Counted from the first letter of the stretch, positions 14,265-56,238 are shown. The stretch is 64,000 nt of DNA from an uncultured Eubacteriales bacterium (GCA_964410125.1 CAYPGQ010000009.1:13192-77191); one strand, 5' to 3'. The notes: generated by a model not told the origin, from the sequence alone. A program made the numbers and translations.

Positions 14265-14331
14265 TGCAGTTTCCTCCCCAAATATATTAAGTTATTATGG
14301 ACGCGACTTCAAATTCAAAAGGGGATTAAAA

Positions 14332-14387
14332 GGGGAAGGTTCTATTTTTCATGTTTTTGAAAAATAGAACCGTCCCCTTTTTTTATT
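14332..14387. terminator. Very strong hairpin (14-bp perfect stem, 19 bp with one mismatch) flanked by A- and T-runs; resembles a bidirectional intrinsic terminator
   Basis: GGGGAAGGTTCTATTTTTCA-TGTTTT-TGAAAAATAGAACCGTCCCC is followed by TTTTTTTATT. It lies between divergent gene starts (14264 minus, 14542 plus), so it terminates neither annotated gene. Confidence 0.5.
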
Positions 14388-14541
14388 GAAATGACACTCA
14401 ATTTCGTTTAAAATATAATTTACTAAATTTCTGAGGTTTTTTGATAAAATAGGCAGCCTTCATCAAGGCAAAAAACAAACAATACTTTTATTTAAATCGA
14501 AAGCATTAATAATAGTTTTTTTTATAACGGAGCAGGGAATA

Positions 14542-15222
14542 ATGGAAAAAAAGATAAAACCTTTCATTCAAGTGTATTGTCCTGAATGCCAGGAGATGAT
14601 AAGTCCAGGAGAATGGACGGCCTGTCCGTATTTCGAGGGTGCAAAGCTGGATGTCAATGACACCGAAGATGCGATGAAACAAATTTTTCGCTGTCATGTC
14701 CAGTGCGATTGCAAGATTGAATACTCCTATTACGAGGGAGACAAATTAGTCTCCAAAGTCGAAGACGCGATCGAGGATCCCGAGAGTTTGCGGCGAATCT
14801 TGTCCTTGGTAACGAAAAAAAAGGATAAAGAAAAAGAAAGGAAATCGAAAAAAATCCTTCTAGTAGATGATGATAGAGATTTCTTGGAAATGCACACGGC
14901 TGTGCTGGAGCATAGGGGATATGAGGTGATTACAGCCCAGAGCTCCAATGAATGCATGGCAAAGTTGGATGAGACAAAGCCAGACATCGTTATTCTCGAC
15001 GTCATGATGGAACAGTTCGATTCCGGCTTCAAAGCCAGCGAGAAGATCAAACAGAAACACAAAAACCTTCCAGTCATGCTTTTAACATCGATCGGAGCAC
15101 AAACAAACTTGGATTTTTCATCAAACGATGATGTTCTGAAAGTTAGCGGGGCGGATGCCCTTCTGGATAAACCAGTGAGCCCCAAAGTCTTGATCGATGA
15201 GATCGAGCGGCTGACAAGCTAG
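14542..15222 (+). CDS. Response-regulator receiver protein with N-terminal Cys-rich (zinc-ribbon-like) extension and no output domain
   Basis: The N-terminus has CPEC-x12-C and C-x3-C-x-C. A Lys/Glu-rich linker follows. The REC domain reads KKILLVDDDRDFLE...DIVILDVMM...VMLLTS...DALLDKP. Confidence 0.85.
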   Translation: MEKKIKPFIQVYCPECQEMISPGEWTACPYFEGAKLDVNDTEDAMKQIFRCHVQCDCKIEYSYYEGDKLVSKVEDAIEDPESLRRILSLVTKKKDKEKERKSKKILLVDDDRDFLEMHTAVLEHRGYEVITAQSSNECMAKLDETKPDIVILDVMMEQFDSGFKASEKIKQKHKNLPVMLLTSIGAQTNLDFSSNDDVLKVSGADALLDKPVSPKVLIDEIERLTS

Positions 15223-15246
15223 AAGGCTGATAATCCACCAAGTTCC

Positions 15247-17337
15247 ATGGAATTTTTAAAAATTTCGAGGCAGAAGTGCCGGTTGTGCGGCCGGTGTGTG
15301 AGGGACTGCCCCACCAATGCCTTGATGATCGAGCAAGGGAAGGTGGTTCGGATCGAGAATCGGTGCATTCTGTGCGGATCCTGTTACAAGTACTGTCCGC
15401 ATGGGGCTGTCCAAATACAAACGGGCGTGAATGAAGTCTTGGACGGCCTGGACGCGGGGGAAAAAATCATCGCGTGCCTCGATCCCACATTCCCGGCCGT
15501 TCTGGATGTTGGAACACCTGGCCAGTTGGTGACGGCTCTGAAAAAATTGGGATTTCAGGAAGTTTGGGAATCTGCTCTTGGGGGAGATCTGATCAGCCGC
15601 GAGTATCGAAAATGGCTTTGGGGAAACTCCAAGAATTCTTATATCTCTTCATTCTGTCCTTCGGTCGTACTCTACGTCGAAAAATTTGCACCGCAGTTGG
15701 TCGATCAGCTCGCGCCTGTGGTTTCGCCGATGGTGGCAACCGGAAAAGCCATTAAGAAGCTCCTGGGAGAGGAGACCAAAGTGGTATTTATCGGTTCCTG
15801 TATCTCCCGGATTTACGAGAGCCGGATCCCCCATCTAGAGGGGATCGTTGATTGTGTTCTGACCTACCACGACATAAAAGATATTCTTGATGATAAGGGC
15901 ATAGATCGTGAGGTACAGGAAGAATCACAATTTGATGGACCGAAACCGGGTCTGGGCAGAGTGCTCAGTGTCTCTGGTGGAATGTCCAAATGCATTGGGT
16001 TTGAACAGGACCTGGTGAATTTGAATAATGTGATCACGGCGGGTCCAAAGAGTGCTATACGGGCCATCCAGCAGCTGCAGGATGGGGCCATCCGACCCAA
16101 GTTTCTCGATGTGCTTTTCTGTCAGGGATGCATCGATGGGCCTATCGTGGACAAGAACATATCGGGGCCGAGCCGAAAGCAGATCGTTGTGGATTTTTTT
16201 GAGTCCCAAAGCGAGGAGATTTGGGAAGGGGATAAAGACGTTACTTCGAAACTGTTGCCTATGGACCTTGGACGCAGCTTTTCTGTTCAGGATATATCTC
16301 TGCCAGAGCCGAAGGAAAAAGAGATTCAGGCCGTTTTGGCCGAATTGGGCAAAACCTATCCCAACCGGAATCTGGACTGTGGAGCATGTGGTTTCAACAC
16401 CTGCCGCGAGAAGGCTATCGCCGTCGTGCAGGGTCTGGCCGAGAAAGAAATGTGCATGCACTATCTTCTCACCCAATCGAGGCGCTTGTATTCCCGTCTG
16501 GAAAAGTCTCATCAGGAACTCAAGATTTCCCATGAAGAATTGGAACAGGCTCAGAGACAGCTCATTCAGTCCGAAAAATTGGCCTCTCTCGGTCAGTTGG
16601 CAGCCGGCGTGGCCCATGAATTGAACAATCCTCTGGGAACGATCACCCTTTTCGGCAGTATGCTCAAAAAAGATTTGGCTCACAATGAGAAGTGGGATAA
16701 AGACATCAGCCTTATCATCCTGGAAGCGGAACGGGCCGCCAAAATTGTCAAGGACCTGTTGAGTTTTTCACGGCAAACCAAGCTGAAACCAGGGCTTGTG
16801 AATATTGACAGCATTATCGAAGAGGCGGTCTCTCTTCTCGCCAAGCGATCCCTATTTCGTAACATTCAGGTGAAACAGGAACTGGATGTCTCTGCCCCGA
16901 CCACGTTTGCCGATCCTGATCTGCTCAAGCAGGTCTTTTTCAACATCATTCTGAACGGGGCTCAAGCCATGGAAGGAAGTGGAGAACTCACGATACGAAG
17001 TCATGCTATCAACAGGGATAAAAGGATCCAAATCCAGATCGAAGATACGGGAAAAGGAATTGCAGAGGACCATCTTTCCCGTCTTTTCGATCCTTTTTTC
17101 ACGACAAAGGAAAAGGGAACTGGGCTTGGGCTAGCCTTGGTTTACGGGATTGTGTCCAAACACAAGGGGACGATCGATGTGAAAAGCGAGCTGGGAAAAG
17201 GAACAACGTTTTATATAGACCTGCCTGTTTTGGATCAGTCGGAATGGAAAAAGGGAGAATTGAAGCTCGTGGATATGAAAAAAGTGCAAAGAGGAGGGGA
17301 AGATGCCTCAAAAGGGAAAGATCTTATTGGTGGATGA
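15247..17337 (+). CDS. Sensor histidine kinase with 2x[4Fe-4S] ferredoxin + [FeFe]-hydrogenase large-subunit-like + Fe-S (CxxCx4C..C) domains
   Basis: Two CxxCxxCxxxCP motifs (res 11-21, 40-50). The hydrogenase-like core has SSFCPS, GSCISR and FCQGCIDG at the positions of the H-cluster motifs. It also has LDCGACGFNTC...C, a coiled coil, the H-box AAGVAHELNNPL, and N/G boxes (NIILNGAQAM, DTGKGI, GTGLGLALV). Confidence 0.85.
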   Translation: MEFLKISRQKCRLCGRCVRDCPTNALMIEQGKVVRIENRCILCGSCYKYCPHGAVQIQTGVNEVLDGLDAGEKIIACLDPTFPAVLDVGTPGQLVTALKKLGFQEVWESALGGDLISREYRKWLWGNSKNSYISSFCPSVVLYVEKFAPQLVDQLAPVVSPMVATGKAIKKLLGEETKVVFIGSCISRIYESRIPHLEGIVDCVLTYHDIKDILDDKGIDREVQEESQFDGPKPGLGRVLSVSGGMSKCIGFEQDLVNLNNVITAGPKSAIRAIQQLQDGAIRPKFLDVLFCQGCIDGPIVDKNISGPSRKQIVVDFFESQSEEIWEGDKDVTSKLLPMDLGRSFSVQDISLPEPKEKEIQAVLAELGKTYPNRNLDCGACGFNTCREKAIAVVQGLAEKEMCMHYLLTQSRRLYSRLEKSHQELKISHEELEQAQRQLIQSEKLASLGQLAAGVAHELNNPLGTITLFGSMLKKDLAHNEKWDKDISLIILEAERAAKIVKDLLSFSRQTKLKPGLVNIDSIIEEAVSLLAKRSLFRNIQVKQELDVSAPTTFADPDLLKQVFFNIILNGAQAMEGSGELTIRSHAINRDKRIQIQIEDTGKGIAEDHLSRLFDPFFTTKEKGTGLGLALVYGIVSKHKGTIDVKSELGKGTTFYIDLPVLDQSEWKKGELKLVDMKKVQRGGEDASKGKDLIGG

Positions 17338-17704
17338 TGACCTGGATTTTCTCGAAATGCATAAGGCTGTGCTGGTTAATCATGGTTATGAAGTGAAAAC
17401 AGCTCCCAGTGCTCAAGAGGGATTGGAAAAAGTGAGAACAGAAATGCCAGACCTGATCGTCCTGGATTTGATGATGGAGAAACACGACGCTGGATTTTCC
17501 TTTTCCAGACAAATCAAAAGCGATCCCCTATTCAAAAAAATCCCTATCCTGATGGTGACTGCCGTGGCCGATGTTACAGGCTTCAAGTTTTCATTGGAAA
17601 AGGATGGATACTGGATGAAAACGGATGAGTTTCTCGATAAACCTGTGGAACCATCGGTTCTCATCGAAAAAGTCGAAAAATTACTCGGAAAAAAAGAGGA
17701 GTAA
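17303..17704 (+). CDS. CheY-like single-domain response regulator
   Basis: 133 aa with a GGAGG Shine-Dalgarno sequence. It overlaps the kinase gene by 35 nt. REC motifs are KILLVDDDLDFLE, DLIVLDLMM, ILMVTA and FLDKP. Confidence 0.9.
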   Translation: MPQKGKILLVDDDLDFLEMHKAVLVNHGYEVKTAPSAQEGLEKVRTEMPDLIVLDLMMEKHDAGFSFSRQIKSDPLFKKIPILMVTAVADVTGFKFSLEKDGYWMKTDEFLDKPVEPSVLIEKVEKLLGKKEE

Positions 17705-17705
17705 A

Positions 17706-19193
17706 TTGAGCACCAAAGCGAATATCCTGGTTGTGGATGATGAAATGGGAATCCGGGAGGGCTGCAAGCGAGCCCTTTCCGAAGAAGGTTATGCCGTGGA
17801 TGATGCGGAGGATGGCCAGGCCGGACTCCAGAAAGTCACACAGAATGACTACGACTTAGTCCTGGTCGATCTGATGATGCCGGGTATAGGGGGCATGGAC
17901 CTCATCAAGAAAATTCACCACATGGACCCTGAGATCATCACAGTGGTGATCACAGGGAATGCGACGATCGAAACAGCAGTCGAGGCCACAAAACTTGGCG
18001 CGTACGATTATCTTCCCAAACCCTTTTCCCCCGAGGCGCTGGCCGCGGTCGTCAAGCGCGGGCTGGAAAAGAGAATTCTCAGCCTCGAAGCGAAAAAACT
18101 CTACGCTGAGAGGACACAAAAGATGCTGGAACTGGTGAATGAAAGGAGCCGGCTGCGGACCATTGTCGGCTGCATGGCCGATGGTGTTTTGGTGGCCAAT
18201 CTGGAAGGCCGGCTTGTGCTCTGGAATGCATCCAGTGTCAAGATGCTTAAATCTAAGGGTTTTGATATAGCCGGAGAGCCCCTCGAATACTATATTTCTA
18301 ATGAACCTCTTATCGCCGGCATCAAAGAAGTTCTTAATTCTGAGGATAAAGATTTTTCGATGATAAGCCGGGAAGTTCCCGTCCAGGACGAAAAAGTGAT
18401 CTTGATGGCTAATATAGCGCCAGTCAGGGACGAAGGCGAAAAGATCCTTGGAGCGGTGACGGTTCTCAGGGATATCACAACACTCAAAGAGATCAATAAG
18501 ATCAAGTCGCAGTTTGTCTCGATGGTCGCTCATGAGCTCAGGGCTCCGCTGGCTGCGATCAAGGGTTGGCTGGAAGTAATCCTTTCTGGCGAAGCCGGCG
18601 GGGATGCGGAACAGAATAAGCAATGGCTCCAGCGGGCCATGGATCGTTCAGACTCTTTGCTGGCGCTGGTCAATGACCTTCTCGTGATCAACCGGATGGA
18701 GGCTGGAAAGATTGCCCAAAAAATGGAGCCTGTCCTGATAAACGACGTTATAAAAAAAATAGTCGATTTTTTAAAACCTGAGGCCGAAAAACGAAAAGTG
18801 ACCTTAACCATTGAATTACCTGAAGACCTTCCTTCTATCCAAGCTGATCTCAGAGATATGGAAAAGCTTTTCACCAACCTGGTCAGCAATGCGATCAAAT
18901 TCAACAGGAAGAATGGGTCTGTCACCATAAAAGGGGAGGTCGAGGGGAGTTCTATCCATCTTAGTGTAAAGGACACCGGCATCGGGATTTTAGCCGATCA
19001 CCTATCCCATATCTTCGATGATTTTTACCGTGCCGATGATGAAAAAATAAAAAAGATATCCGGCACCGGGCTCGGTTTGACCATCGCCAAAAAGATTGTC
19101 AACTCCTATTTTGGGCACATCGAGGTGGCAAGCGAACCAGATAAAGGAAGCATCTTTTCTATATTTCTTCCCCTTGAGCATCGCAAAGATTAA
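17706..19193 (+). CDS. Hybrid REC-PAS-histidine kinase
   Basis: REC (NILVVDDEMGIREG...DLVLVDLMMPG...VITGNA...YLPKPF), a PAS-like segment, the H-box SMVAHELRAPL and an HATPase domain (NLVSNAIKF, DTGIGI, GTGLGLTIAK). I place the start at TTG 17706, 1 nt after the upstream stop and behind GAGGAG. The track ORF starts at 17625. Confidence 0.85.
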   Translation: MSTKANILVVDDEMGIREGCKRALSEEGYAVDDAEDGQAGLQKVTQNDYDLVLVDLMMPGIGGMDLIKKIHHMDPEIITVVITGNATIETAVEATKLGAYDYLPKPFSPEALAAVVKRGLEKRILSLEAKKLYAERTQKMLELVNERSRLRTIVGCMADGVLVANLEGRLVLWNASSVKMLKSKGFDIAGEPLEYYISNEPLIAGIKEVLNSEDKDFSMISREVPVQDEKVILMANIAPVRDEGEKILGAVTVLRDITTLKEINKIKSQFVSMVAHELRAPLAAIKGWLEVILSGEAGGDAEQNKQWLQRAMDRSDSLLALVNDLLVINRMEAGKIAQKMEPVLINDVIKKIVDFLKPEAEKRKVTLTIELPEDLPSIQADLRDMEKLFTNLVSNAIKFNRKNGSVTIKGEVEGSSIHLSVKDTGIGILADHLSHIFDDFYRADDEKIKKISGTGLGLTIAKKIVNSYFGHIEVASEPDKGSIFSIFLPLEHRKD

Positions 19194-19203
19194 GAGGCAA
19201 AAA

Positions 19204-21486
19204 ATGAGTTCAAGCGAAAAATACAAGTTGAATGAGATTGTCCATAAAGAAAGCTTAGCCCCGGCTATCACACTTTTTAAAATTTATACACCTGTTGTAG
19301 CCAATGCCGTGAAGGCGGGACAGTTCGCCGTCGTCAGAACGGATGACTATGCGGAGAGAGTCCCCTTGACTGTTGCGGATAAAGACCTAAAGGGAGAGAC
19401 CATCACGCTGATCGTGCAGGTTGTGGGGACGGCCACACGGAAAATGGACTCCTTGGAAGTGGGGGATTTTTTTCTCGATGTTGTCGGTCCTCTGGGACAG
19501 GCGACAGAGGTCGGGAGTGCGGGAACCGTGGTGTGTATCGGAGGGGGCGTCGGTGTCGCCCCTGTTTATCCGATTACCAGAGCATTTAAAGAGGCCGGGA
19601 ATCGCATCATCTCCATCATCGGTGCGCGGTCCAAGGAAATGATCATCCTGGAAGACGAGATGCGGGCCACAAGCGACGAGCTGTATATCGCCACAGACGA
19701 TGGTTCCGAGGGGCATCATGGTTTTGTGACAGATATCCTCAAAAAGCTTCTAGCAGATGGAACAGAGATTAATGAAGTTGTAGCCATAGGCCCGGGAATA
19801 ATGATGAAAGCCGTGGCCGATATCACGAAGGAGCCGGGCATCAAAACCATCGTGAGCCTCAACTCTCTCATGGTGGATGGAACAGGCATGTGCGGGGGGT
19901 GCCGGATCACAGTAGGAGGAGAAACAAAATTTGTCTGTGTGGATGGGCCGGAATTTGACGGCCATCTGGTCGATTTTGATGAGCTCATGCAGCGCTCGGA
20001 GATGTATGTCCGGGAAGAACATCGTGCCATGTGGGATTATGAATGCCGGCTGCAGCAAGCCGACGATAACCTAAAAAGAGCAAACAACCGGGAGCCCATG
20101 CCCAAACAGGACCCGAAGATGCGGATCCAGAATTTTGATGAGGTGGCGTTGGGATACAACCGGGAACAAGCCATGCGAGAAGCTTCACGCTGCCTGCAGT
20201 GCAAAAAGCCTTTTTGTGTGGAAGGATGCCCTGTGGATATCGACATTCCGGCTTTTATCATCAAAATCAAAGAAGGGGATTTCATGGGGGCCATCCACAA
20301 GATCAAGGAAAAAAACAGCCTGCCTGCTGTATGCGGCAGAGTATGCCCACAGGAGGAACAGTGCGAAGCGAAGTGCATCCTCGGGAAGAAAAAAGATCCC
20401 ATCGCCATAGGCCGATTGGAACGGTTTGTGGCAGATTATGAGTTTGACCAGGGCGAAGCGCGAGTCCCGAAGCTTCCTGAACCGACAGGGAAAAAGGTGG
20501 CGGTGATCGGTGCCGGCCCAGCAGGACTCACCGTTGCCGGGGAATTGTGCAAGATCGGTCACGCTGTCACGGTTTTCGAAGCTCTCCATGCCCCGGGAGG
20601 AGTTCTTGTTTACGGCATTCCCGAGTTTCGTCTACCCAAATGGATTGTCCAGAGGGAGAGCGATTACATCGGGAAGTTGGGAGCGGATATCAAAGTCAGT
20701 TATGTCGTCGGCAAAGCCAAAACCGTGAACGAGCTACTTGAAGACGGATACGATGCGGTGTTTATCGGGACAGGGGCAGGATTACCCTATTTTCTGAATA
20801 TTCCGGGGGAGAACCTTAATGGAGTATATTCGGCAAACGAATTTCTGACCCGGGTTAATCTGATGAAGGCCTATCTTTTTCCCGAATACAACACGCCCAT
20901 CCGTCTCGGCCAAAAAATCGCGGTCATCGGCGGAGGAAACGTGACAATGGATTCAGCCCGAACTTCCCTACGCCTTGGTGCCGAGAAAGTCTATCTGGTC
21001 TACCGGAGGTCCCGCGAGGAGATGCCTGCTCGGGAGGAAGAGATCGAGAATGCCTTTGAAGAAGGCATCGAACCCCGTCTGCTGACCAATCCGATCCGGA
21101 TCCTGGGCAATGAAAGAGGATGGGTCACAGGATTGGAATGTGTCCAGACGAAATTGACAGAGCCTGATGATTCTGGCCGGAGGCGTCCCGTTGCCATAGA
21201 GGGTTCTGAGCATGTTATCGATGTGGATATGGTGATTGTGGCTATCGGTCAGGGGCCGAACCCGTTGTTGACTTCGACGACACCGGACTTAGAACTGACA
21301 AAATGGGGAAACATCGTGGCCGATGAAGAGACAGGGCGGACATCGAAAAAGGGTGTTTTTGCCGGAGGGGATATTGTCACAGGTGCGGCCACCGTGATTC
21401 TTGCGATGGGCGCGGGCAAAATTGCGGCCCGATCCATCGACCAGTACTTAAACGATGGAAAATGGGAGATCGCTCGTGAAGGCTAG
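19204..21486 (+). CDS. nfnAB: Fused NfnA-NfnB: NADH-dependent reduced-ferredoxin:NADP+ oxidoreductase-type (sulfide dehydrogenase/GltD-like) single polypeptide
   Basis: The N-terminal PyrK/NfnA-like FAD/NAD module carries the [2Fe-2S] motif DGTGMCGGCR...FVCVDGPEF. The C-terminal GltD/NfnB-like module has 2x[4Fe-4S] (RCLQCKKPFCVEGCP; CGRVCPQEEQCEAKC), GAGPAGL and a second dinucleotide fold (VIGGGNVTMD). The ATG at 19204 lies behind AAGAGG, and the upstream part of the track ORF overlaps the kinase gene. Confidence 0.85.
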   Translation: MSSSEKYKLNEIVHKESLAPAITLFKIYTPVVANAVKAGQFAVVRTDDYAERVPLTVADKDLKGETITLIVQVVGTATRKMDSLEVGDFFLDVVGPLGQATEVGSAGTVVCIGGGVGVAPVYPITRAFKEAGNRIISIIGARSKEMIILEDEMRATSDELYIATDDGSEGHHGFVTDILKKLLADGTEINEVVAIGPGIMMKAVADITKEPGIKTIVSLNSLMVDGTGMCGGCRITVGGETKFVCVDGPEFDGHLVDFDELMQRSEMYVREEHRAMWDYECRLQQADDNLKRANNREPMPKQDPKMRIQNFDEVALGYNREQAMREASRCLQCKKPFCVEGCPVDIDIPAFIIKIKEGDFMGAIHKIKEKNSLPAVCGRVCPQEEQCEAKCILGKKKDPIAIGRLERFVADYEFDQGEARVPKLPEPTGKKVAVIGAGPAGLTVAGELCKIGHAVTVFEALHAPGGVLVYGIPEFRLPKWIVQRESDYIGKLGADIKVSYVVGKAKTVNELLEDGYDAVFIGTGAGLPYFLNIPGENLNGVYSANEFLTRVNLMKAYLFPEYNTPIRLGQKIAVIGGGNVTMDSARTSLRLGAEKVYLVYRRSREEMPAREEEIENAFEEGIEPRLLTNPIRILGNERGWVTGLECVQTKLTEPDDSGRRRPVAIEGSEHVIDVDMVIVAIGQGPNPLLTSTTPDLELTKWGNIVADEETGRTSKKGVFAGGDIVTGAATVILAMGAGKIAARSIDQYLNDGKWEIAREG

Positions 21487-23555: not shown

Positions 23556-24977
23556 CTATATCGGGAAGTGGATGAGGAAAGAGGTTCCTTTGTTCACTTC
23601 GCTTTCGACTTCGATTTTTCCCCCATGACAATCGGCCACCCTTTTGACGATGGAGAGTCCCATCCCTAAACCGCCAGTTTCTTTAAATCGGGATTTATCC
23701 ACGACATAAAAGCGGTCGAAGATCAAAGGTTGCGATTCTTCCGGGATCCCTATGCCCGTGTCTTTAACGAGGAGGGTGAATGTCCCGTCCTTTTTATCCA
23801 GACTGACTTCCACCTTCCCTCCCGAATGTGTGTACCGGATGGAATTGTCGATGATGTTGGCGACCATCCGTTCCAGCAGGACTTCTTCTCCTTTGATTTG
23901 GGCTGGTTCCGCCTTCTTGATATCGAGTGTGATGTCTTTCTTTTTTGCGGCAAGCTCCTGGCTTTCTACGACCTTGAGCAGAATTTCATCCAACTGAACC
24001 GACTTGTCGAACTCCTTTTTTTCCAGAGCTTCGATCCTGGAAAGGAAGAGAAGGTCGTCGATGATCCGTTCCAGATAGGCCGCTTCCTCGAGAGTACTCT
24101 TTAAAATTTTTTGGTACTCTTCTTTGTTGCGCTCTTTCCGGAGAAGCACTTCGATTTCACCCCGGATTATGGTCAGCGGGGTTCTCAACTCATGGGAGAC
24201 ATCGCCGCTGAATTGTTTGATTTTTTTGACCGATTTTTCCAATCGGGAAATCATATCATTGAAGGTATCAACCAGTTCTCCGATCTCGTCTTGGCGTTGT
24301 CCGGACTCGATGCGCAAAGACAGATCATCGGCGGAGATATCCTTGGCTGTTTGAACGACACTCTTGACTGGTTTCAAAGCTTTTCGGATGATAAAATTTC
24401 CTCCTAAAGAAGCCAGTAACATCAACCCGCCTCCTGCGAGGATCATGATAATCATCAGTCTTCGCAGATCGAATTCGGTGTTCTCCAACGAAATCCCCAC
24501 CTGCACAATATTGGGCCCTCTTGCAGGATACAGGATAGTGCGTACAGGATAGGGGCCGAGTTTCTTTTCATTATGGGTCATGTAAACCAGGCTATCGATG
24601 TCCGATCGATCAGCGCGGTAGTAAGTTCTCACATCAAGCAGAAAACTTCCTTCCTCAACCGGCTCGGGACGAATAACTTCCGTGATTTTTTTTCTTCCAT
24701 GATCCTGTAATTTTACAATTTGAATCAACGGCTGGTAGGTTTGGAACTTCCTTGTTGTTTCCCGGATGGCTTTTTCCCAGGACACGCCCCGCTCTCGGTA
24801 CCAGGTTTCATTAGTCTCACCTGCGATCTCCAGCAATTTGGCATCGAGCTCATCCAGCAGGCTGTCTTTAAAGCTTTGATACTGAAAAATACCGGCCAGG
24901 ATGATGATTCCCCCAAGGATCACGATATACCACAGGGTGAGTTTAAAGCTTAGTGACCGGAATTTTTTAGTCTTCAT
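23556..24977 (-). CDS. Two-component sensor histidine kinase (CusS/heavy-metal-sensor-like architecture)
   Basis: Two TM helices flank a periplasmic domain. There is a HAMP domain, the H-box DVSHELRTPLT and an HATPase domain (IIDNSIRYT, DTGIGI, GGLGMGLSIV). The ATG at 24977 overlaps the RR stop by 11 nt, and the track ORF extends further upstream. Confidence 0.85.
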   Translation of the reverse strand: MKTKKFRSLSFKLTLWYIVILGGIIILAGIFQYQSFKDSLLDELDAKLLEIAGETNETWYRERGVSWEKAIRETTRKFQTYQPLIQIVKLQDHGRKKITEVIRPEPVEEGSFLLDVRTYYRADRSDIDSLVYMTHNEKKLGPYPVRTILYPARGPNIVQVGISLENTEFDLRRLMIIMILAGGGLMLLASLGGNFIIRKALKPVKSVVQTAKDISADDLSLRIESGQRQDEIGELVDTFNDMISRLEKSVKKIKQFSGDVSHELRTPLTIIRGEIEVLLRKERNKEEYQKILKSTLEEAAYLERIIDDLLFLSRIEALEKKEFDKSVQLDEILLKVVESQELAAKKKDITLDIKKAEPAQIKGEEVLLERMVANIIDNSIRYTHSGGKVEVSLDKKDGTFTLLVKDTGIGIPEESQPLIFDRFYVVDKSRFKETGGLGMGLSIVKRVADCHGGKIEVESEVNKGTSFLIHFPI

Positions 24978-25638
24978 CGATCTGGAATCCATGGCCGCGG
25001 ATGGTTTGGATAAGCTTGATATCAAAATCTTTGTCGATTTTGTTGCGGAGATGATTGATGTACACGTTAACGATGTTGCTGAAACCTTCATAATCCATGT
25101 CCCAGACATGTTCGAGGATCATGGATGGAGTTACGGTTCGCCCCCGGTTTCGTAGCAAATACTCCAACAAGGCATATTCTTTGCCGGTGAGATCGATCTT
25201 TTCACCCGCTCTGGTAACCATCCGCCTTAAGGGATCCAGTTCCAGGTCTCCAACCTTTAGTTCTTTGGTCTTGTAATCCTGGCTTCTTCTCAGGAGCGCG
25301 CGAATCCGGGCTAACAGCTCATCGAAAGAGAATGGCTTGGTCAGATAATCATCGGCGCCCTCGGAAAGCCCTGTCACCTTGTCCTCTATCTCGTCTTTTG
25401 CTGTCAGCATAAGGATAGGCGTGAGAATCGCCTTTTGTCTCATTTCCCGGCAAACCGTGAAGCCGTCCATCCCAGGCAACATGATGTCCAAAACGATCAC
25501 ATCGTACGGGTTGAGTTGGACAAGGTATAAAGCATCGGTGCCGTTGCGGCAGACATCCACGGCATATTGTTCTTCCTGCAGACCCCTTTTTAGAAATCCC
25601 CCGACCTTTTTGTCATCTTCCACGATAAGTATTCGCAT
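24967..25638 (-). CDS. OmpR-family DNA-binding response regulator
   Basis: REC (MRILIVEDD...VIVLDIMLPGMDG...MLTAKD) plus a winged-helix domain (LTGKEYALLEYLLRN...VNVYINHLRNKID). An alternative upstream start lies at 25686. Confidence 0.9.
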   Translation of the reverse strand: MRILIVEDDKKVGGFLKRGLQEEQYAVDVCRNGTDALYLVQLNPYDVIVLDIMLPGMDGFTVCREMRQKAILTPILMLTAKDEIEDKVTGLSEGADDYLTKPFSFDELLARIRALLRRSQDYKTKELKVGDLELDPLRRMVTRAGEKIDLTGKEYALLEYLLRNRGRTVTPSMILEHVWDMDYEGFSNIVNVYINHLRNKIDKDFDIKLIQTIRGHGFQIDED

Positions 25639-25697
25639 GGCCTTATTATAATTCACGTCTGCGGAAAAGGAAATGGAATCTGACATACACTTAAGGT

Positions 25698-27104: not shown

Positions 27105-28454
27105 TTATTTTATGAGGAAAAGCTTTGTTTGGTGTCCGTCGATGAATTTGCAGCCGTCTTTGGTGAAAACGCCCCCTTCTTCCAGGCCCATTCGTATATC
27201 CAGATTGTCCCACTCCGGCACTTTGTACCTGTTGTTCATTTCGATGGCGTAACACGTGTTGTAATACAGAGGGTAATCTCCCCGTACGGGGACGCCGTCC
27301 TGCCGGTTCCAGAGCCCGACCACAAATCCGGCGGCATGTCCATGCACTCCCAGAGGGTGGCAGTAGACGCTGGGTGTCAGGCCTTCGGCCTTGGCTTTCT
27401 CTAGCGAAGAACGAAGAACTTCGTTTCCGGTTCGGCCGATCCGGTGTTCTGCCATCACGATATCCTGCAGCCGGTTTCCTCTGAGCAACGCTTCTTTCAA
27501 TCCCTTCGGGGCATCATTTTCGCCGATTCGGCACACGTAAGCATTTTGCTGGGTGTCGGTGCAGAGCCCTAGATATACGATGCCTATATCGCAATGCAGG
27601 AGATCTCCGCGCCGGATAATATGAGGATTGTCCTTGTACATCATTGCATCTTTCTCGGAGCGTTGAATAGAGACGGAGGGCTGAAACCAGGTTTCCAGGC
27701 CGAGGTCTGTAAACCGCTGCCGGATCCACCAAACCACGTCCTTAGTAGTTGTCGCATCGGGAACGATCACTTGATTCGAGAAGAATTCGGCGATGATGTC
27801 GTGGGCAACCCCGCAGATGTGACGATACAGACTCAGCTCACGAGGGCTTCGCGTTTCAAGCCACCCCACACACAGGTTTTCGGCCGATACCAGACGGGTA
27901 GATAATTCTGGCCCAAAAGCTTTGACTAAACCAGCCTTGAAGGAGGCCGACAGCCCATCTCCGAAAGCCCATGTTTCCGATTCGTTTATCCCGATTTTTT
28001 TTGGATTGTTCTTTTTAATATAGTCGGCTAGGACCTCCATCTGATCTTTGCTTTGGTCTGTGAAGATGGATTTATACCATTTTCCCATCCCATAGAAGCT
28101 GCCTGTCAGCCTTGCCACGCCCTTCTCTTTTCCTTTGTCATGGAAGATGAGGATGGAAGTGCGGCGGGCGGCCATGGTCGGTTCCGGGATCAAAGTCAGG
28201 TAAACTGGGTCCTCGTTATACTCTCTGCAGATGATGAGCCACATATCTATCCCTTCCCGGCGCATCAGCTCGGGAATGATGTGCTCCAACCGCCATTCCA
28301 GTATTTCGTTCATGACCTTGGCCCTGTCTTTTTCCGGCAGGATGTTGTCGATGTCTCGAACAGCCGTGGTCCCGATATTCTGAGAATATGCCGTTCCCGC
28401 AACTATTGATAAAAGGACTACCAAACAAACATACAAAGATTTTCCTGTTTTCAT
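27105..28454 (-). CDS. M24-family metallopeptidase (Xaa-Pro aminopeptidase/prolidase-like), exported
   Basis: Signal peptide. The pita-bread fold metal-ligand blocks are present (LLHCDIGIVYLGLCTD, HPLGVHGHAAG, CYAIEMN, MGLEEG). Confidence 0.75.
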   Translation of the reverse strand: MKTGKSLYVCLVVLLSIVAGTAYSQNIGTTAVRDIDNILPEKDRAKVMNEILEWRLEHIIPELMRREGIDMWLIICREYNEDPVYLTLIPEPTMAARRTSILIFHDKGKEKGVARLTGSFYGMGKWYKSIFTDQSKDQMEVLADYIKKNNPKKIGINESETWAFGDGLSASFKAGLVKAFGPELSTRLVSAENLCVGWLETRSPRELSLYRHICGVAHDIIAEFFSNQVIVPDATTTKDVVWWIRQRFTDLGLETWFQPSVSIQRSEKDAMMYKDNPHIIRRGDLLHCDIGIVYLGLCTDTQQNAYVCRIGENDAPKGLKEALLRGNRLQDIVMAEHRIGRTGNEVLRSSLEKAKAEGLTPSVYCHPLGVHGHAAGFVVGLWNRQDGVPVRGDYPLYYNTCYAIEMNNRYKVPEWDNLDIRMGLEEGGVFTKDGCKFIDGHQTKLFLIK

Positions 28455-28503: not shown

Positions 28504-30387
28504 CTACTGAACTTTGATGTTGATCCGCTTGGTGTCCGTGCCTCCGTTTTGAGACTTCACCTGAACCTCGACCCAGCCCTGGCCACCGTCCATCTTTACG
28601 AGAGCACCGAAACGGAGCGTCTGTTTTCCTTTCAGCCAAAACTCGGTTCCCTTTTTCGTGATCAATTCCACCTGCGCGCCGGGATTGGATGGATTGATAG
28701 CGGCTGAGCCTTTCGGAACCTCGATCATCGAAATATTGTTGGATGTCTTGAGCATGATCTTATCTTTTTTGACAAGTTTCAATTGTTGGCTTCTGTCCGA
28801 GGCAGTCGGGTAAACCCTGTTGTTTTTGACTGCTGCCTCGATCCAGTAAAGGTTATCCGCTGCCGGGCGCACGGTGATTTCCTCAACCTCGACCTTGGGG
28901 AACTGGCTGGCACAGTACATCACGAACTGGGCATTTTTGTAGGCTTCCTGCTCGATATACCGGGCAGGAGGGGTTCGGCGGATGTGTTTTTTCGGGGATC
29001 CGCCTATCCATATCTCCCCCAGGTCGGGGTGGTCTACTTTGTGCGGATTTATCCAACCTTCACCCATGAGCTCGATATCGATCCATTGGAGCATTTCTTC
29101 ATCGGAAACACGGCCGTCGCCGTCCATATCCGCATATTCGGCATTCGAACCCCAGAGTTCGATCAGATAGCTGTAAGCACCAAGCATGTAATAGGTGGCT
29201 GCGTTAGCCTGACCGCTGAGTCCACCGATGGTCGGGCGGTAATTTTGCAGAATTCGTGCCCCAGTGCTGACGATAGCCGTCTGGGTGTCCATATCGTGCT
29301 GATTGACCGGTGCCACCTGGCGGTCAAAAAGCTGAGCGTACTTGTTTCTTTCCCTCATCATCGCTAGACGTTGCTCTTGCATCTCTTGCATTCGCTGGGC
29401 CTGTTCGGCACTCATATTGGGCTGCCGGACTGCCGGAGGGGCCTGGAACATGACCAAACGGCCTGTATTGTGGTAGTGAAAACTGGCAAAGATGTTCGGA
29501 TGGTTGAGCTGAAACTCGAACACATTCCGGCATTCGGACTCTGACATCGGATAGGGATTTCCTGCCTGCAGGTTCCATCCGTAGGGATAATTCCTGTTGG
29601 GGTCAGGGCCACCGATGTCGTCCTCATTGATCAACCCGTCGCCGTCGTTGTCGTATCCTTCTCCGCCAATGCGGGTGAAAAGTTTTACTCCTTCTTCTGG
29701 ATTTTCTACACGGATGAATTGCCTCTTGTCAGCAGAGAGTTTGTAGTTCCCTTTGGGGCCCTCGATGTACATGGTAGAGAGTTCTCCATCACCGTCCACA
29801 TCTTCGGTTTGATCCTCATCGTAAAGCCCGTCGCCGTCGTTATCTTCCGGCCGGTAGGGTTCGCGCGGATTGTTCGGGGTGTTGGGATGTACGACAAAGG
29901 ATTCGTTGGCATCCACGTTCAATCCCGGCAGGAGGTAGAAGGTGCAGTTGTCCACAAGATCATGCACATAGGGATCGTAATTGTACCGTGTCAACAAGTA
30001 CCACATCAGATAAAGAGAGCATGTGATGCCGTTGACTTCATTACCGTGCACAGCACCGTCCACCCACATGGCTGTTTTCTCGGAATGTTTTCCGGTCGCC
30101 TTGGCTGTTATGGTGATTAAGTACTGGTCACGGTCCATCCGGCTTTTTCCGATGGACTGGATATCCGAGAGCTGCGGATACTTTTTTTGTATGTTGTGCA
30201 TGATTTTGGTCCACTCCGCATAGCTGTAATACCGGCTCCAACTGATCGGAAAGTCCAATTCTCCATGGTATCCACCCGGGCTTTTTTGCAGATTTTTCTG
30301 GGCGATGCCTGGGGGAGTCAGGACAAGAACCATGGTTATTACAAGAGTTGCTGTGTATTTAAACAATCTTTTGATTTTCATCTTCAT
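28504..30387 (-). CDS. M14-family zinc carboxypeptidase, exported, with Asp-rich Ca-binding-like inserts
   Basis: Signal peptide. It has the zinc motif VHGNEVNG (HxxE), NRNYP and a later FHYHNTG. The acidic DxDxDG-type loops are EDNDGDGLYDEDQTEDVDGDGE and YDNDGDGLINEDD. Confidence 0.85.
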   Translation of the reverse strand: MKMKIKRLFKYTATLVITMVLVLTPPGIAQKNLQKSPGGYHGELDFPISWSRYYSYAEWTKIMHNIQKKYPQLSDIQSIGKSRMDRDQYLITITAKATGKHSEKTAMWVDGAVHGNEVNGITCSLYLMWYLLTRYNYDPYVHDLVDNCTFYLLPGLNVDANESFVVHPNTPNNPREPYRPEDNDGDGLYDEDQTEDVDGDGELSTMYIEGPKGNYKLSADKRQFIRVENPEEGVKLFTRIGGEGYDNDGDGLINEDDIGGPDPNRNYPYGWNLQAGNPYPMSESECRNVFEFQLNHPNIFASFHYHNTGRLVMFQAPPAVRQPNMSAEQAQRMQEMQEQRLAMMRERNKYAQLFDRQVAPVNQHDMDTQTAIVSTGARILQNYRPTIGGLSGQANAATYYMLGAYSYLIELWGSNAEYADMDGDGRVSDEEMLQWIDIELMGEGWINPHKVDHPDLGEIWIGGSPKKHIRRTPPARYIEQEAYKNAQFVMYCASQFPKVEVEEITVRPAADNLYWIEAAVKNNRVYPTASDRSQQLKLVKKDKIMLKTSNNISMIEVPKGSAAINPSNPGAQVELITKKGTEFWLKGKQTLRFGALVKMDGGQGWVEVQVKSQNGGTDTKRINIKVQ

Positions 30388-30394
30388 CCTCCCT

Positions 30395-32521
30395 TTAATC
30401 GATAGAAACAGGTTTCGCCTTGGTACCGCCCTTCTGCGAAGTAACCACGACCTTGAGCGGTGTGTTTCCCTCCACCGCCACCAGCCATGTAACAGTCCGT
30501 GAAGGGCCCTTCTGGTTGACCTGGGTCGGTTGCCTCCGTTGTTGCCGCATAAAAGGCATCGGGAAACCCGGAGGATAGAAAAATCGCCGTTGGGATCGCT
30601 CTTGAGCAGGTGCTGCTGGCATCCTTTGTCCTGTGTAGCCAGGAATTTTCATGGTTCCTTCCATCACACCCAGCTTTTGGAAAGGCGTTCCGAGCAGATA
30701 AGTTGTTTTGGTGGGATCGCCGATAAGCCAGATCACGTCCTCTCTGTTTCCTGCCAGCTGAGCGCCTCGTGCAACATGGGTAGCGAGGTTCCCTTCATTT
30801 TTGACCTTGGCTGTGATTTGAACAACTTTGAATTTTCCCTTTGATTTGCCTTTTTTAATCGTGACCTGATCACCACTCTGAATTGCTTTGGCTTCTTTAG
30901 CGCTGTTGGTTGTGTATAGTACTTTAGCTTTGACATCGGTGATCACGACCTCTGGCAAAAGCCCTGCGCGGAAAAACGTGAACTGCCAATGATCCTCGCA
31001 TACCTTACGCAGCGGGTCACCAGGCCAAGCATTGTTGCGCAAGTTGGGAAGCCAACCGCCGATTTCTCCATCACCAAGCTCTGGGTGCTTGAATGGTTTC
31101 CAGTCGACAAAAAGCCCGCCGCCGTATTTTTCATCCTGGTATTTCAGTGTTTCCCGTTGTCTCTGGGTATAATTCTCATCTCCTTCGGATTTGGGAAAAC
31201 CGGGGATGTCATTCCTGGGATTCCAGAGTTCAGTGCAGAGGGTGTATATGCCGTACTGCATGTACATCCAGTCTGCGGCCATGCCATAGCTGTAACGTTG
31301 GTCACGTTCTTCATTGTAACTCACCCTCCAGCCCCATGGCAGCTCGTATCCCCGCATGATGGCATATTTATTTTTCGATGTCTTCTTGAGCTCCTCCTTG
31401 TATTTATCCAGGTTGTCGGGATTTTGCCATGCTTCCGGGATCTCCTCCCCTATGATCTCCAGGTATTTTTTTCCCATGATGAAGTCCAAAACCGCCACGT
31501 CCTTTAGGTGCAGGTTGGGGTGCGGGGCTGTCCCCATCGGGCGGAAGGTAAATCCGCCCGAGGTATGGTAATTCTGCGCCATCAGAATATTTGTGTGGTT
31601 GGTCAGAAACTCGGCCATGGCGTGGGTTTCAGGCGCTGAGGTGGGGTAGTTACCCGAGCCGCCGGCAAATCCGTCGGGCCGCCACCAACCTTCGGGATAA
31701 TTTCGGTTGAGGTCGATCCCAGACTCAGAATCCTCCCCGCGCTTGCCATCGCCATCGTTGTCCTTATCCTCTGTGATAACAGAATAACGGGGCTTGTCTG
31801 TTTTTTGGTTTCCTCGGACTCGTATCATCAGGCGTGGATCTTGGTCATCCATGACGTAGTTACCCTTGGGATCCTTATAGCGGAACTGGAGGATTCGCCC
31901 GTCTCCATCGAGGTCGTCTGGTCCGTCCTCGTTGATCTTCCCGTCGTTATCGTCATCTTTTTTCATGCTGTTGTATCGCTGTGGTATACCTTTTTCCACA
32001 CTGTTGTACACTCCGTCCGGATTGACCATCGGGCAGATGAAGAAGGTTTTGTTGTCGATTATGGTTGTGATCTCTTTGTCGGATCCATAACCTGAGACCA
32101 GCTTATCGATGGTGTACAGACAGACTTCGGTCCCGGTAAACTCGTTTCCGTGCGTGGCTCCAGAGATCCAGTGACCTGGTTTTCCTTGATAGGATTTCAT
32201 CGGGATGACATTTTTCACGCCTTCTTTGCGTTTGTTCCGAAGGTCTACATGGGCGTCGATCGTAGTCCCGGTCTTCATGTTGGAGATTACGAGGACATAA
32301 ATTGACCTGCCCATCGTGCTTTTCCCTATTTCTGTGAGTTTGGTGATGTTTGGATAGGCTTTGGCCACGGCCTTAAGATAGTTCAACGTGCCGGTGTAGC
32401 CGTGGTATTTGTCGAAACTAATCGGCACTTTTTGTGCGGCGCGCATAGGAGTGCTAATGATAAGGCCAAACATGATAAATAAGATGGCTATCCTGAGAAA
32501 ATAGACAGATTTCAACTTCAT
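30395..32521 (-). CDS. M14-family zinc carboxypeptidase paralog, exported
   Basis: The ATG at 32521 lies behind GGAGGG. There is a signal/anchor (VYFLRIAILFIMFGLIISTPMRAA), THGNEFTG, DLNRNYP and QNYHTSG. The same acidic loops occur (DDDNDGKINEDGPDDLDGDG, DKDNDGDGKRGED). The C-terminal tail resembles that of its neighbour. Confidence 0.85.
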   Translation of the reverse strand: MKLKSVYFLRIAILFIMFGLIISTPMRAAQKVPISFDKYHGYTGTLNYLKAVAKAYPNITKLTEIGKSTMGRSIYVLVISNMKTGTTIDAHVDLRNKRKEGVKNVIPMKSYQGKPGHWISGATHGNEFTGTEVCLYTIDKLVSGYGSDKEITTIIDNKTFFICPMVNPDGVYNSVEKGIPQRYNSMKKDDDNDGKINEDGPDDLDGDGRILQFRYKDPKGNYVMDDQDPRLMIRVRGNQKTDKPRYSVITEDKDNDGDGKRGEDSESGIDLNRNYPEGWWRPDGFAGGSGNYPTSAPETHAMAEFLTNHTNILMAQNYHTSGGFTFRPMGTAPHPNLHLKDVAVLDFIMGKKYLEIIGEEIPEAWQNPDNLDKYKEELKKTSKNKYAIMRGYELPWGWRVSYNEERDQRYSYGMAADWMYMQYGIYTLCTELWNPRNDIPGFPKSEGDENYTQRQRETLKYQDEKYGGGLFVDWKPFKHPELGDGEIGGWLPNLRNNAWPGDPLRKVCEDHWQFTFFRAGLLPEVVITDVKAKVLYTTNSAKEAKAIQSGDQVTIKKGKSKGKFKVVQITAKVKNEGNLATHVARGAQLAGNREDVIWLIGDPTKTTYLLGTPFQKLGVMEGTMKIPGYTGQRMPAAPAQERSQRRFFYPPGFPMPFMRQQRRQPTQVNQKGPSRTVTWLVAVEGNTPLKVVVTSQKGGTKAKPVSID

Positions 32522-32687
32522 AACATTGTCCCTCCATAAGTTAGATATTTGTAAAAAAAAGTTGGGATGACTTGATAAGAACACATGGAAAGATATTACA
32601 TAATACAATCGGACGATAAAATCAATCATTTCCTACATTCCCTTGCTTGGCTTCCGAAACGGATAGAGATTAAATGAGATAGGCTAA

Positions 32688-55882: not shown

Positions 55883-56238
55883 CTCAATTCTTCAAAATCA
55901 TCAATTGTTTATCCTAATCACTCACTTTTTGAGCAGTCGTGCTTAATACATCCTCGCTGTCAATATGGGGACGTCCCTGTATTGTCTGGTCATTATAGAT
56001 TCTGTCGTTTGTTATGCTTCTTTCAGTTCCATCTAATATTGAATTTTTTCACGAGAAGAAAGCCCAAAAAAATCCTGGTATATTTTACGAAAGAGGGCAT
56101 ATAATATTCACCTGTTTTTGTATTTATGGAATGATATCTCTTTCGAAGCATTTTGGCAGAATTATGACTGTCCGTGAGGACTCTAACACAACATGGGATT
56201 AATTTGTGGTGATAAAATTTTTCTTGGAGGTATTTTTA

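Follow-up and report, generated by a model that had tools for sequence, protein, structure and literature searches.

An Nfn-linked, pocket-remodelled form of the histidine-kinase-linked "sensory [FeFe] hydrogenase" cassette in Candidatus Aminicenantes and related loci

We analysed a stretch of 64,000 nucleotides (nt) from an uncultured Eubacteriales bacterium (GCA_964410125.1 CAYPGQ010000009.1:13192-77191; hereafter the window, with positions counted from its first letter), in which five closely packed plus-strand genes at 14542-21486, here called g1 to g5, combine a hydrogenase-like sensor kinase and its phosphorelay partners with a fused NfnAB transhydrogenase. The locus is an Nfn-linked, pocket-remodelled form of the histidine-kinase-linked "sensory [FeFe] hydrogenase" cassette, and this form itself was previously undescribed. 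The open reading frame of g1 (14542-15222, 226 amino acids (aa)) encodes a Cys-rich receiver protein, that of g2 (15247-17337, 696 aa) a cytoplasmic sensor histidine kinase, and that of g3 (17303-17704, 133 aa), which is preceded by the AGGAGG-like ribosome-binding site GAGGAGGGG, a receiver domain alone. A receiver-PAS kinase is encoded by g4 (17706-19193, 495 aa), which starts with TTG behind GAGGAG within an open frame beginning at 17625, and the fused NfnAB by g5 (19204-21486, 760 aa), with an ATG start behind AAGAGG and an open frame beginning at 19096. The genes follow one another with a gap of 24 nt, an overlap of 35 nt (g2/g3), and gaps of 1 nt and 10 nt, exactly as given in the initial annotation of this DNA, and Pfam bears out the domains which that annotation had assigned to all five proteins. 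The catalytic motifs are complete in the two kinases (H, N, G1, F, and G2 boxes) and in the three receivers (acidic pocket, phospho-Asp, Thr, and Lys). The claim that the operon has no DNA-binding output also holds, as Pfam and NCBIfam recognised no output domain in any of the five proteins, whether helix-turn-helix (HTH), winged-helix, sigma-54, or enzymatic. Minus-strand genes lie on either side, encoding a HEAT-repeat protein upstream and a cyclophilin downstream; the 3' ends of the convergent cyclophilin gene and g5 overlap by 39 nt (21448-21486), leaving no intergenic room for a terminator.

The sensor g2 begins with two Fer4 domains (residues 5-55, 15259-15411), whose ferredoxin-type cysteines (C11, C14, C17, C21 and C40, C43, C46, C50) are conserved in each homologue with a called sequence that reaches them. 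They are followed by a hydrogenase-like H-domain (residues 78-299, 15478-16143), and the resemblance on which the initial annotation had staked its proposal is clear, with a match to Fe_hyd_lg_C at 3.5e-42 and 145 bits against a cut-off of 22. Further downstream, an FeS domain (PF04060; residues 376-404, 16372-16458) carries a Cx2Cx4Cx16C motif (C378, C381, C386, C403), in a region readable as CGACGFNTCREKAIAVVQGLAEKEMC. This motif corresponds to the accessory [4Fe-4S] site that characterises putative sensory hydrogenases of groups C and D (PMC8163306), and it is invariant in 30 fused-kinase representatives and in the 120 g2 homologues over which residue conservation was counted. The kinase core (residues 448-661, 16588-17229; HisKA 448-510, HATPase_c 556-661) directly follows this C-terminal cluster, with no PAS match to g2 in Pfam; the only PAS domain of the operon is in g4. 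The core is of the AtoS/ZraS/NtrB type, with AtoS and ZraS as the top NCBIfam matches, and its H457, within the motif AHELNNPL, is invariant. More than 120 clusters of g2 homologues exist at ≥61% identity, and those that are named belong to Candidatus Aminicenantes; the source of the window is likewise an Aminicenantes bacterium, from sediment.

To map the pocket residues, g2 and its homologues were aligned with [FeFe] hydrogenases of solved structure and with catalytic HydA proteins from the compared loci, and the roles of H-domain residues were drawn from the literature (PMC10147833, PMC8163306, PMC10055695). The H-cluster ligands are kept in g2 as C137, C185, C292, and C295 (C300, C355, C499, and C503 of CpI), and all four cysteines are conserved in 119-120 of the 120 homologues. 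The [2Fe] pocket itself is altered: in CpI numbering, A230 is replaced by D79, S232 by T81, C299 by F136, M353 by G183, P354 by S184, K358 by R188, and M497 by L290. K358 contacts the distal CN of the [2Fe] subcluster, and A230, S232, and P354 line the cavity (PMC10147833); residues forming hydrogen bonds to the [2Fe] cofactor are conserved in the characterised sensory enzymes (PMC10055695). The replacements R188, T81, and D79 recur in 114-118 of the 120 homologues. In addition, g2 has a one-residue deletion between the last two H-domain cysteines (CQGC), and the whole fused-kinase family has CxGC at this site, one residue shorter than the CPGGC of the compared catalytic HydA.

At the other end of the operon, g5 contains NAD_binding_1 and DHODB_Fe-S_bind domains in its NfnA part, followed by Fer4_20 and Pyr_redox_2 in its NfnB part. 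Homology to Thermotoga maritima NfnB (4ylf_B) covers residues 294-754 at E=1e-184, and the NfnA part (residues ~9-275) matches the small subunit of Pyrococcus NfnI (5jca_S, 2e-94) and T. maritima NfnA (4ylf_A, 9e-73), with alignments to Nfn that include the cysteine-rich stretches. The score against NCBIfam PRK12778 is 1099.8 bits, ~3 bits under the cut-off of 1103. In a single polypeptide, g5 is a full-length homologue of the NfnSL-type NADH-dependent ferredoxin:NADP+ oxidoreductase. Of the two proteins encoded between sensor and transhydrogenase, g3 has a Response_reg domain only (Pfam), and g4 consists of an NtrC-type receiver (residues 7-116), a PAS domain (~149-260), and a HisKA plus HATPase_c core of the PhoR/WalK type with the H-box AHELRAPL (Pfam, NCBIfam).

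The gene set is stable among relatives. In four of them, with kinases 62-66% identical to g2 and contigs of 0.26-1.95 Mb, all five genes are present with order and g2/g3 overlap unchanged (4/4), at identities of 64-68% for g1, 75-78% for g3, 65-67% for g4, and 74-75% for g5. A metagenome scan for close relatives yielded eight loci, all of which encode g1 (8/8), and g3 to g5 follow in the four with sufficient contig (4/4). A second type, placed by a scan of species-representative genomes, occurs in metagenome-assembled genomes (MAGs) of Syntrophorhabdaceae, Smithella, and related Desulfobacterota; these encode g2 to g5 without g1, and their sensors are ~41-46% identical to g2. Adjacency of nfn had been set beforehand as one of the tests on which the initial annotation could fail, and it is conserved in all eight Aminicenantes loci that are long enough and, directly downstream of the relay, in six of seven distinct Desulfobacterota loci. 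The latter count includes locus L005, where the sensor homologue is 41-45% identical and for whose protein a second contig of 3.7 kb (L006) ends before nfn. Finding the same genes, order, and g2/g3 overlap in every relative with enough contig shows that the arrangement is not due to chance. The operon is conserved in Aminicenantes as a core of g2, g3, and g4 plus g1, tied to the fused NfnAB of g5. The fused Nfn is the best conserved protein of the cassette, its NfnB part having 72-79% identity between phyla compared to 41-46% for the sensor, and the fused Nfn proteins are closer to other cassette-linked copies than to unfused NfnA and NfnB encoded at the same loci. This conservation and the closeness of the cassette-linked copies would fit joint inheritance of the components, or else a transfer in which the whole cassette moved together.

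The additional protein g1 joins its N-terminal Cys-rich region (residues 1-~95) through a Lys/Glu-rich linker to a Response_reg domain (105-221, 1.5e-19; Pfam). Its orthologues form more than 120 clusters, all of 222-238 aa and annotated as Response_reg only, and their alignment shows C13, C28, C51, H52, and C55 to be invariant in the N-terminal part and D109, D110, D153, T182, and K210 in the receiver. Residues 1-100 have no Pfam match at E≤10 and no sequence match in the PDB, and relatives of the N-terminal domain were detected only among its Aminicenantes orthologues. The AlphaFold2 model has a predicted local distance difference test score of 50-79 in this part, which is too uncertain for a fold search. 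The domain could bind metal, and a role in nucleic acid binding is also conceivable. Present in all Aminicenantes loci and missing from the Desulfobacterota loci, g1 is a lineage-specific Cys-rich receiver added to the three-protein core.

The core itself is found well beyond these two groups. At E≤1e-30, 684 cluster representatives match the sensor module (residues 1-420), and a fused kinase core is present in about one-third of the best 150 of these. We compared the cassette over 80 genome loci from many phyla; in other phyla, 53 loci had enough sequence for the downstream genes to be assessed. The fused-kinase sensor is usually followed by a receiver of 130 aa and a receiver-(PAS)-kinase, with a receiver kinase downstream in 46 of the 53 loci and both proteins in at least 34. 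The small receivers behind the sensor kinase in other phyla are orthologous to g3 at ~40% identity. Phyla and groups with this triad include Ignavibacteria, Bacteroidota, Planctomycetota (including Kuenenia), Calditrichota, Myxococcota, Spirochaetota, and Victivallales, among others. In its hydrogenase-linked version, the triad comes directly after HydC-HydB-HydA, and in many cases HydG-HydF-HydE or a second HydCBA set follows it. Within 10 kb of the non-Nfn sensors, HydA is encoded at 39, HydB at 40, HydC at 38, HydG at 19, HydF at 15, and HydE at 15 of 58 loci, and the Hyd gene identities at loci L067 and L030 were verified by Pfam. These 58 are the loci outside the Nfn clade as scored, and none of them encodes a fused NfnAB (0/58). 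A different arrangement is seen in a Clostridia MAG (L013, 12560-13921) and a Dehalococcoidales MAG (L016, 11907-13268), where the sensor kinase is followed not by a small receiver but by a receiver-sigma54-HTH_8 activator; locus L015 encodes a similar receiver protein of 448 aa.

The idea that a relay without DNA-binding output is peculiar to the nfn operon must therefore be given up: since the same triad sits inside hydCBA...hydGFE operons of other phyla, at between at least 34 and 46 of the 53 loci depending on the genes required, the relay is a general cassette. The core triad is widespread, and that of the window falls within a monophyletic branch of its own, where the neighbouring enzyme is Nfn. 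Sensory hydrogenase genes next to bifurcating hydrogenases and kinases were already known (PMC3561251), and HydDB lists subtype C1 as "histidine kinase-linked (putative)" with an undetermined role (PMC5037454). For the Nfn-linked cassette, we found no description in the searchable literature, in line with the initial annotation, which had expected the regulatory coupling it proposed to be undescribed.

The two versions of the sensor differ in the [2Fe] pocket. The Nfn-linked sensors of the Aminicenantes and the Desulfobacterota group are monophyletic in all 100 neighbour-joining bootstrap replicates. At position 230, they carry Asp (10/10 loci and 117 of 120 Aminicenantes homologues), compared to Ala in 55 of the 58 hydrogenase-linked loci. 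Position 232 is Thr or Ala vs. Ser (55/58), and position 299 is Phe in 120/120 homologues vs. a variable residue. Ser replaces Pro at position 354 in Aminicenantes (Pro in 57/58), and Lys358, present in 56/58 of the hydrogenase-linked set, is Arg in 118/120 homologues and His or Gln in two Desulfobacterota loci. Loci L006 and L008 account for the few cases of Asp230 and the two without Lys358 in the hydrogenase-linked set; they were counted among the 58 and belong by sequence to the Nfn-type clade. P231, S323, P324, and E361 are retained in the Nfn-linked sensors, and all Fe-S cysteines are retained in both groups (eight N-terminal, four in the H-domain, and the four of Cx2Cx4Cx16C). Genes for HydA, HydE, HydF, and HydG were found within 10 kb of none of the ten Nfn-type sensors, and neither HydA nor HydEFG is encoded among the scanned open reading frames of the window.

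As the new pocket residues are strongly conserved, the pocket is under selection, yet altered. This conserved alteration, and the fact that neither HydA nor HydEFG was found near any Nfn-type locus, make a [2Fe]-less Fe-S sensor the likelier reading of the input domain. The initial annotation had suggested H2 or redox sensing. For the Nfn-linked clade, the first of these is doubtful, because [2Fe]-pocket residues including the Lys, the Ala, and the Ser are replaced, Phe occupies the position of the proton-relay Cys, and no HydA or HydEFG is encoded nearby; judged from these residues and gene neighbourhoods, Fe-S redox sensing is the more probable of the two.

For the locus as a whole, we lean slightly towards a hydrogenase-derived Fe-S redox sensor relay coupled to Nfn. 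The input domain of g2 would then no longer act as an H2-binding H-cluster. As an Fe-S redox sensor, it would instead signal how far ferredoxin or the low-potential branch of Nfn is reduced, probably via the two N-terminal ferredoxin-like clusters. The path of the phosphoryl group may be read from subfamily resemblance. The receiver of g4 is 40-41% identical to those of the sigma-54 activators at L013 and L016, compared to only 26-30% for g1 and g3; the g4 kinase core resembles PnpS, WalK, and PhoR, and g1 and g3 best resemble PhoB-, PleD-, and DivK-type receivers (NCBIfam). By this resemblance, the most economical order leads from g2 to the g4 receiver, on to the g4 kinase, and from there to g3 and g1. 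Accordingly worded as a model, the NtrB/AtoS-type kinase of g2 would phosphorylate the NtrC-type receiver of g4, and this phosphorylation would set the activity of the PhoR/WalK-type kinase of g4, which would act on the PhoB/DivK-like receivers g3 and g1. At the last step, an unlinked DNA-binding regulator might set the expression of the operon and of further redox genes, or the single-domain receivers might exert control through protein-protein contacts. The net role could be to match Nfn capacity to the NAD(P)H/ferredoxin balance during amino acid or sugar fermentation.

Several points weigh against this explanation. Any physical contact between the sensor and Nfn is hypothetical. Co-transcription of g1 to g5 is a prediction from gene spacing and synteny. 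The proposed order of transfer rests on subfamily resemblance and gene order, and the g2/g3 overlap, which may indicate translational coupling, would equally fit a transfer from g2 to g3. Arg358 could still form a hydrogen bond to the cyanide ligand, and with the four H-cluster cysteines in place, a modified H-cluster is conceivable. A further hydrogenase-like protein of 425 aa is encoded at locus L003 (2885-4162, minus strand); it has the layout of group D (M2e) with the canonical Lys358, CxxxC, and Cx2Cx4Cx16C, so that maturases may exist in these genomes. A query with HydF from an Acidobacteriota locus gave at least 120 close matches, those listed being to other Acidobacteriota with none named Aminicenantes, which says little about maturases in Aminicenantes. 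The genes adjoining that of the L003 protein encode small HATPase_c proteins and a PHP protein, a neighbourhood resembling that of TamHydS.

Among the alternatives, an ordinary transcriptional circuit is a serious possibility, if not quite a probable one. Here, the relay would end on an unlinked NtrC- or OmpR-type regulator, nfn would be its target or a passenger, and the receivers would serve as phosphate sinks or connectors. Orphan regulators are frequent in bacterial genomes, the kinase core of g2 is of the AtoS/ZraS/NtrB type, and g1 is preceded by a conserved promoter candidate and leader. A further pointer is the receiver-sigma54-HTH activator encoded right after the homologous sensor kinase in Clostridia and Dehalococcoidales, which keeps transcriptional output via an unlinked regulator likely. 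On the other side, no regulator is conserved within 10 kb at any Nfn-type locus, and no sigma-54 promoter precedes the operon. The sole DNA-binding regulator among the scanned open reading frames of the window is an OmpR-type protein (24967-25686) with its own HAMP kinase. This pair (23556-25686, minus strand) lies 2 kb downstream of the operon and shows no sign of a link to it.

The region upstream of g1 contains two sigma-70-type promoter candidates in a consensus scan, TTGAAA-17-TAAAAT at 14386-14414 and ATGACA-17-TATAAT at 14391-14419 (plus strand), either of which would imply a leader of ~120 nt. TTGAA and TAnAAT elements align in close relatives, and in relatives further removed, g1 is preceded by TTGAC(C)-17-TATACT. 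The leader (14420-14541) is conserved in sequence among the close relatives (L087-L094), with a block GAGGTTTTTTGATAARATAGRCAGCC...CAATA containing a GCCTT-N4-AAGGC palindrome, which could be an operator. Other candidates in this region were rejected. A sigma-54 promoter had no match in 14265-14541, and matches across the window were below chance. A structured RNA in the leader was not supported, as Rfam gave only sub-threshold hairpin matches in the window and none in L003, and RNAalifold predicted three pairs at -1.2 kcal/mol. The divergent promoter region also contains, immediately before the -35 element, an inverted repeat (14328-14381) with arms of 24 nt and 96% complementarity, a 6-nt loop, and flanking A- and T-runs. 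It was discarded as a repeated element or conserved operator, being unique in the window and, among close relatives, present only in the 92%-identical L089. Its form resembles a bidirectional terminator, yet no gene ends there.

A genuine H2 sensor, in which a modified but functional H-cluster reads the H2 partial pressure and the relay adjusts Nfn, steering NADPH electrons to or from ferredoxin and H2 production, is possible but rather doubtful. In favour, g2 retains P231, S323, P324, and E361 along with the four H-cluster cysteines, it shares its overall layout with TmHydS and TamHydS, in which the H-cluster is bound despite the absence of C299, M353, and M497 (PMC8163306, PMC10055695), and sister clades lie within hydCBA/hydGFE operons. 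Moreover, [NiFe] Hox genes adjoin the cassette at L003 and L004, and the canonical group-D-like homologue at L003 hints at maturases. These points are countered by the exchange of K358 for Arg, His, or Gln, of A230 for Asp, and of S232 for Thr or Ala, and by the bulky Phe299, all fixed only in the Nfn-linked clade, as well as by the lack of HydA and HydEFG within 10 kb at all ten loci. Furthermore, one published Aminicenantes bin is described with only [NiFe] hydrogenases (PMC5459899). Besides this bin, the literature gave only a collective statement on [FeFe] enzymes.

Control of Nfn at the protein level, also raised by the initial annotation, is unlikely in our view. Phosphorylated g3 and/or g1 would bind NfnAB and switch its activity or direction, or g2 would dock on NfnB and exchange electrons with it. 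Co-inheritance of nfn with the relay is strict in two phyla, and g5 is the most conserved protein, its NfnB part (72-79%) well ahead of the sensor (41-64%); the operon has no DNA-binding domain, and the ferredoxin-like clusters of the sensor would be the type of module that NfnB reduces. Against this stand the lack of any extra domain or insertion for docking in g5 relative to T. maritima NfnAB and the occurrence of the triad without Nfn in all other phyla compared, and post-translational action on Nfn is pure conjecture. We give a slightly smaller chance still to a combined version in which the sensor kinase, its hydrogenase domain having lost the H2-binding diiron site, docks on NfnAB as a redox probe and reads how far the low-potential branch of that enzyme is reduced, and phosphorylated g3 and g1 attach to Nfn and govern how active it is or in which direction it runs. 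If true, Nfn would be the first electron-bifurcating enzyme with protein-level control by a phosphorelay, and the same triad would by extension control HydABC in other phyla.

That g5 is instead a GltD-like electron-input subunit, e.g. for the split glutamate-synthase-like proteins encoded at 40498-46058, with the relay regulating nitrogen assimilation, is very improbable: NfnB is homologous to GltD (matches to 6s6s_G and 2vdc_G), GltB-like proteins without a GltD are encoded in the window, and glutamate dehydrogenase genes flank the cassette at L001-L004, but the matches to T. maritima NfnB (1e-184) and Pyrococcus NfnI are far better than those to GltD (~1e-84), the NfnA part is fused within the same polypeptide, and the GltB-like genes lie 19 kb away on the opposite strand and are unlinked to the cassette in relatives.

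Further genes around the cassette were noted in the window and at related loci. At L001 (1965-8941) and L005 (682-7557), genes for NuoE-like, NuoF-like, and molybdopterin/NuoG-like proteins, NfnA, and NfnB lie directly upstream of the cassette, in the place held by HydCBA elsewhere; they may form a split bifurcating transhydrogenase of the Sporomusa (Stn)/Bfu type (for comparison, PMC7483475). Loci L011 and L012 have only upstream NfnA/NfnB and NuoF-like matches. StnC of the Sporomusa-type Nfn was considered as a hydrogenase-like precedent and dismissed, as the paper shows StnC to be GltD-like plus NuoG-like (PMC7483475). Convergent to nfn, L003 (16250-22088) and L004 (16175-22013) encode an NAD-linked [NiFe] cluster (HoxH, small subunit, and HoxU/F-like) with HypA and HypB, and at L002-L004, glutamate dehydrogenase and a split thiamine-pyrophosphate enzyme are encoded upstream of the cassette. 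In the window, three large minus-strand genes (40498-48025) encode an FAD-linked oxidase with a 4Fe-4S dicluster domain, a protein of 975 aa with Fer4 and glutamate synthase FMN domains, and a GATase plus GXGXG protein of 887 aa, together a split glutamate-synthase-like set without a GltD subunit. Two large tandem M14 carboxypeptidase genes (28504-32629) and an M24 peptidase gene (27105-28454) also lie on the minus strand, and further peptidase genes are present, e.g. M1 at 56206-58569. The M14, M24, and M1 peptidases fit a peptide- or amino-acid-based lifestyle.

Multi-kinase relays without output domains have a counterpart in RedCDEF of Myxococcus, where two kinases and receiver-only proteins are encoded in one operon. 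The likeness is one of layout, and the receiver-kinase fusion suggests kinase-to-kinase control; inputs, biology, and the linked enzyme differ. Use of a hydrogenase-type domain as a two-component input is shared with HoxBC/HoxJ/HoxA of Ralstonia eutropha (HydDB group 2b; PMC5037454, PMC5665086). That system differs in having an unrelated metal site, a sensor separate from the kinase, a DNA-binding NtrC-type output, and hydrogenase genes as targets.

The transhydrogenase partner corresponds over its full length, including the Fe-S cysteine stretches, to both subunits of NfnAB/NfnSL (T. maritima, 4YLF; P. furiosus NfnI, 5JCA). Here, the subunits are fused in a 760-aa chain, a form already represented by NCBIfam PRK12778, and encoded beside a phosphorelay. 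Nfn is a key node in the balance of NADH, NADPH, and ferredoxin in anaerobes, and we found no description of a dedicated Nfn regulator in the literature searched; the cassette, if the proposed coupling is true, would identify one.

Closest to g2 are the putative sensory [FeFe] hydrogenases of group C (TmHydS, M2f), group D (TamHydS, M2e), and HydDB subtype C1, with which it shares the two N-terminal [4Fe-4S] motifs, the four-Cys H-domain, and Cx2Cx4Cx16C, as well as the lack of Cys299, Met353, and Met497 (F136, G183, and L290 in g2). A signalling role has been proposed for these enzymes but never demonstrated (PMC8163306, PMC13104023, PMC5037454). Group C (M2f) proteins have a PAS domain after the C-terminal cluster, whereas in g2 the kinase core is fused directly. 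The sensory enzymes conserve the residues that form hydrogen bonds to the cofactor (PMC10055695), whereas the g2 clade replaces A230, S232, and K358 and has Phe at position 299. Finally, they adjoin a bifurcating [FeFe] hydrogenase, whereas the partner of g2 is NfnAB. A TamHydS study of 2026 calls for the identification of interaction partners of sensory hydrogenases, with signal transfer an acknowledged open question (PMC13104023). The locus and its relatives offer a concrete, conserved partner set of fused kinase, small receiver, and receiver kinase that is amenable to phosphotransfer assays.

The hydrogenase-linked fused-kinase members in Bacteroidota, Ignavibacteria, and Planctomycetota (e.g. 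L067 and L030) have the same triad and cysteine set, likewise with no DNA-binding protein. They differ in lying between hydCBA and hydGFE, in keeping A230, S232, and K358, and in lacking both Nfn and the Cys-rich g1. This amounts to a natural experiment, in which one clade keeps the cassette, exchanges HydABC for NfnAB, and rewrites the [2Fe] pocket. If it is true that this clade senses the redox state of ferredoxin or Nfn rather than H2, it would show a catalytic metal site turned into a redox sensor. The main result is thus the comparative pattern itself, with the triad next to HydABC and a canonical pocket in one set of organisms and next to Nfn and an altered pocket in the other, which makes the signalling of these hydrogenase-like proteins experimentally tractable.

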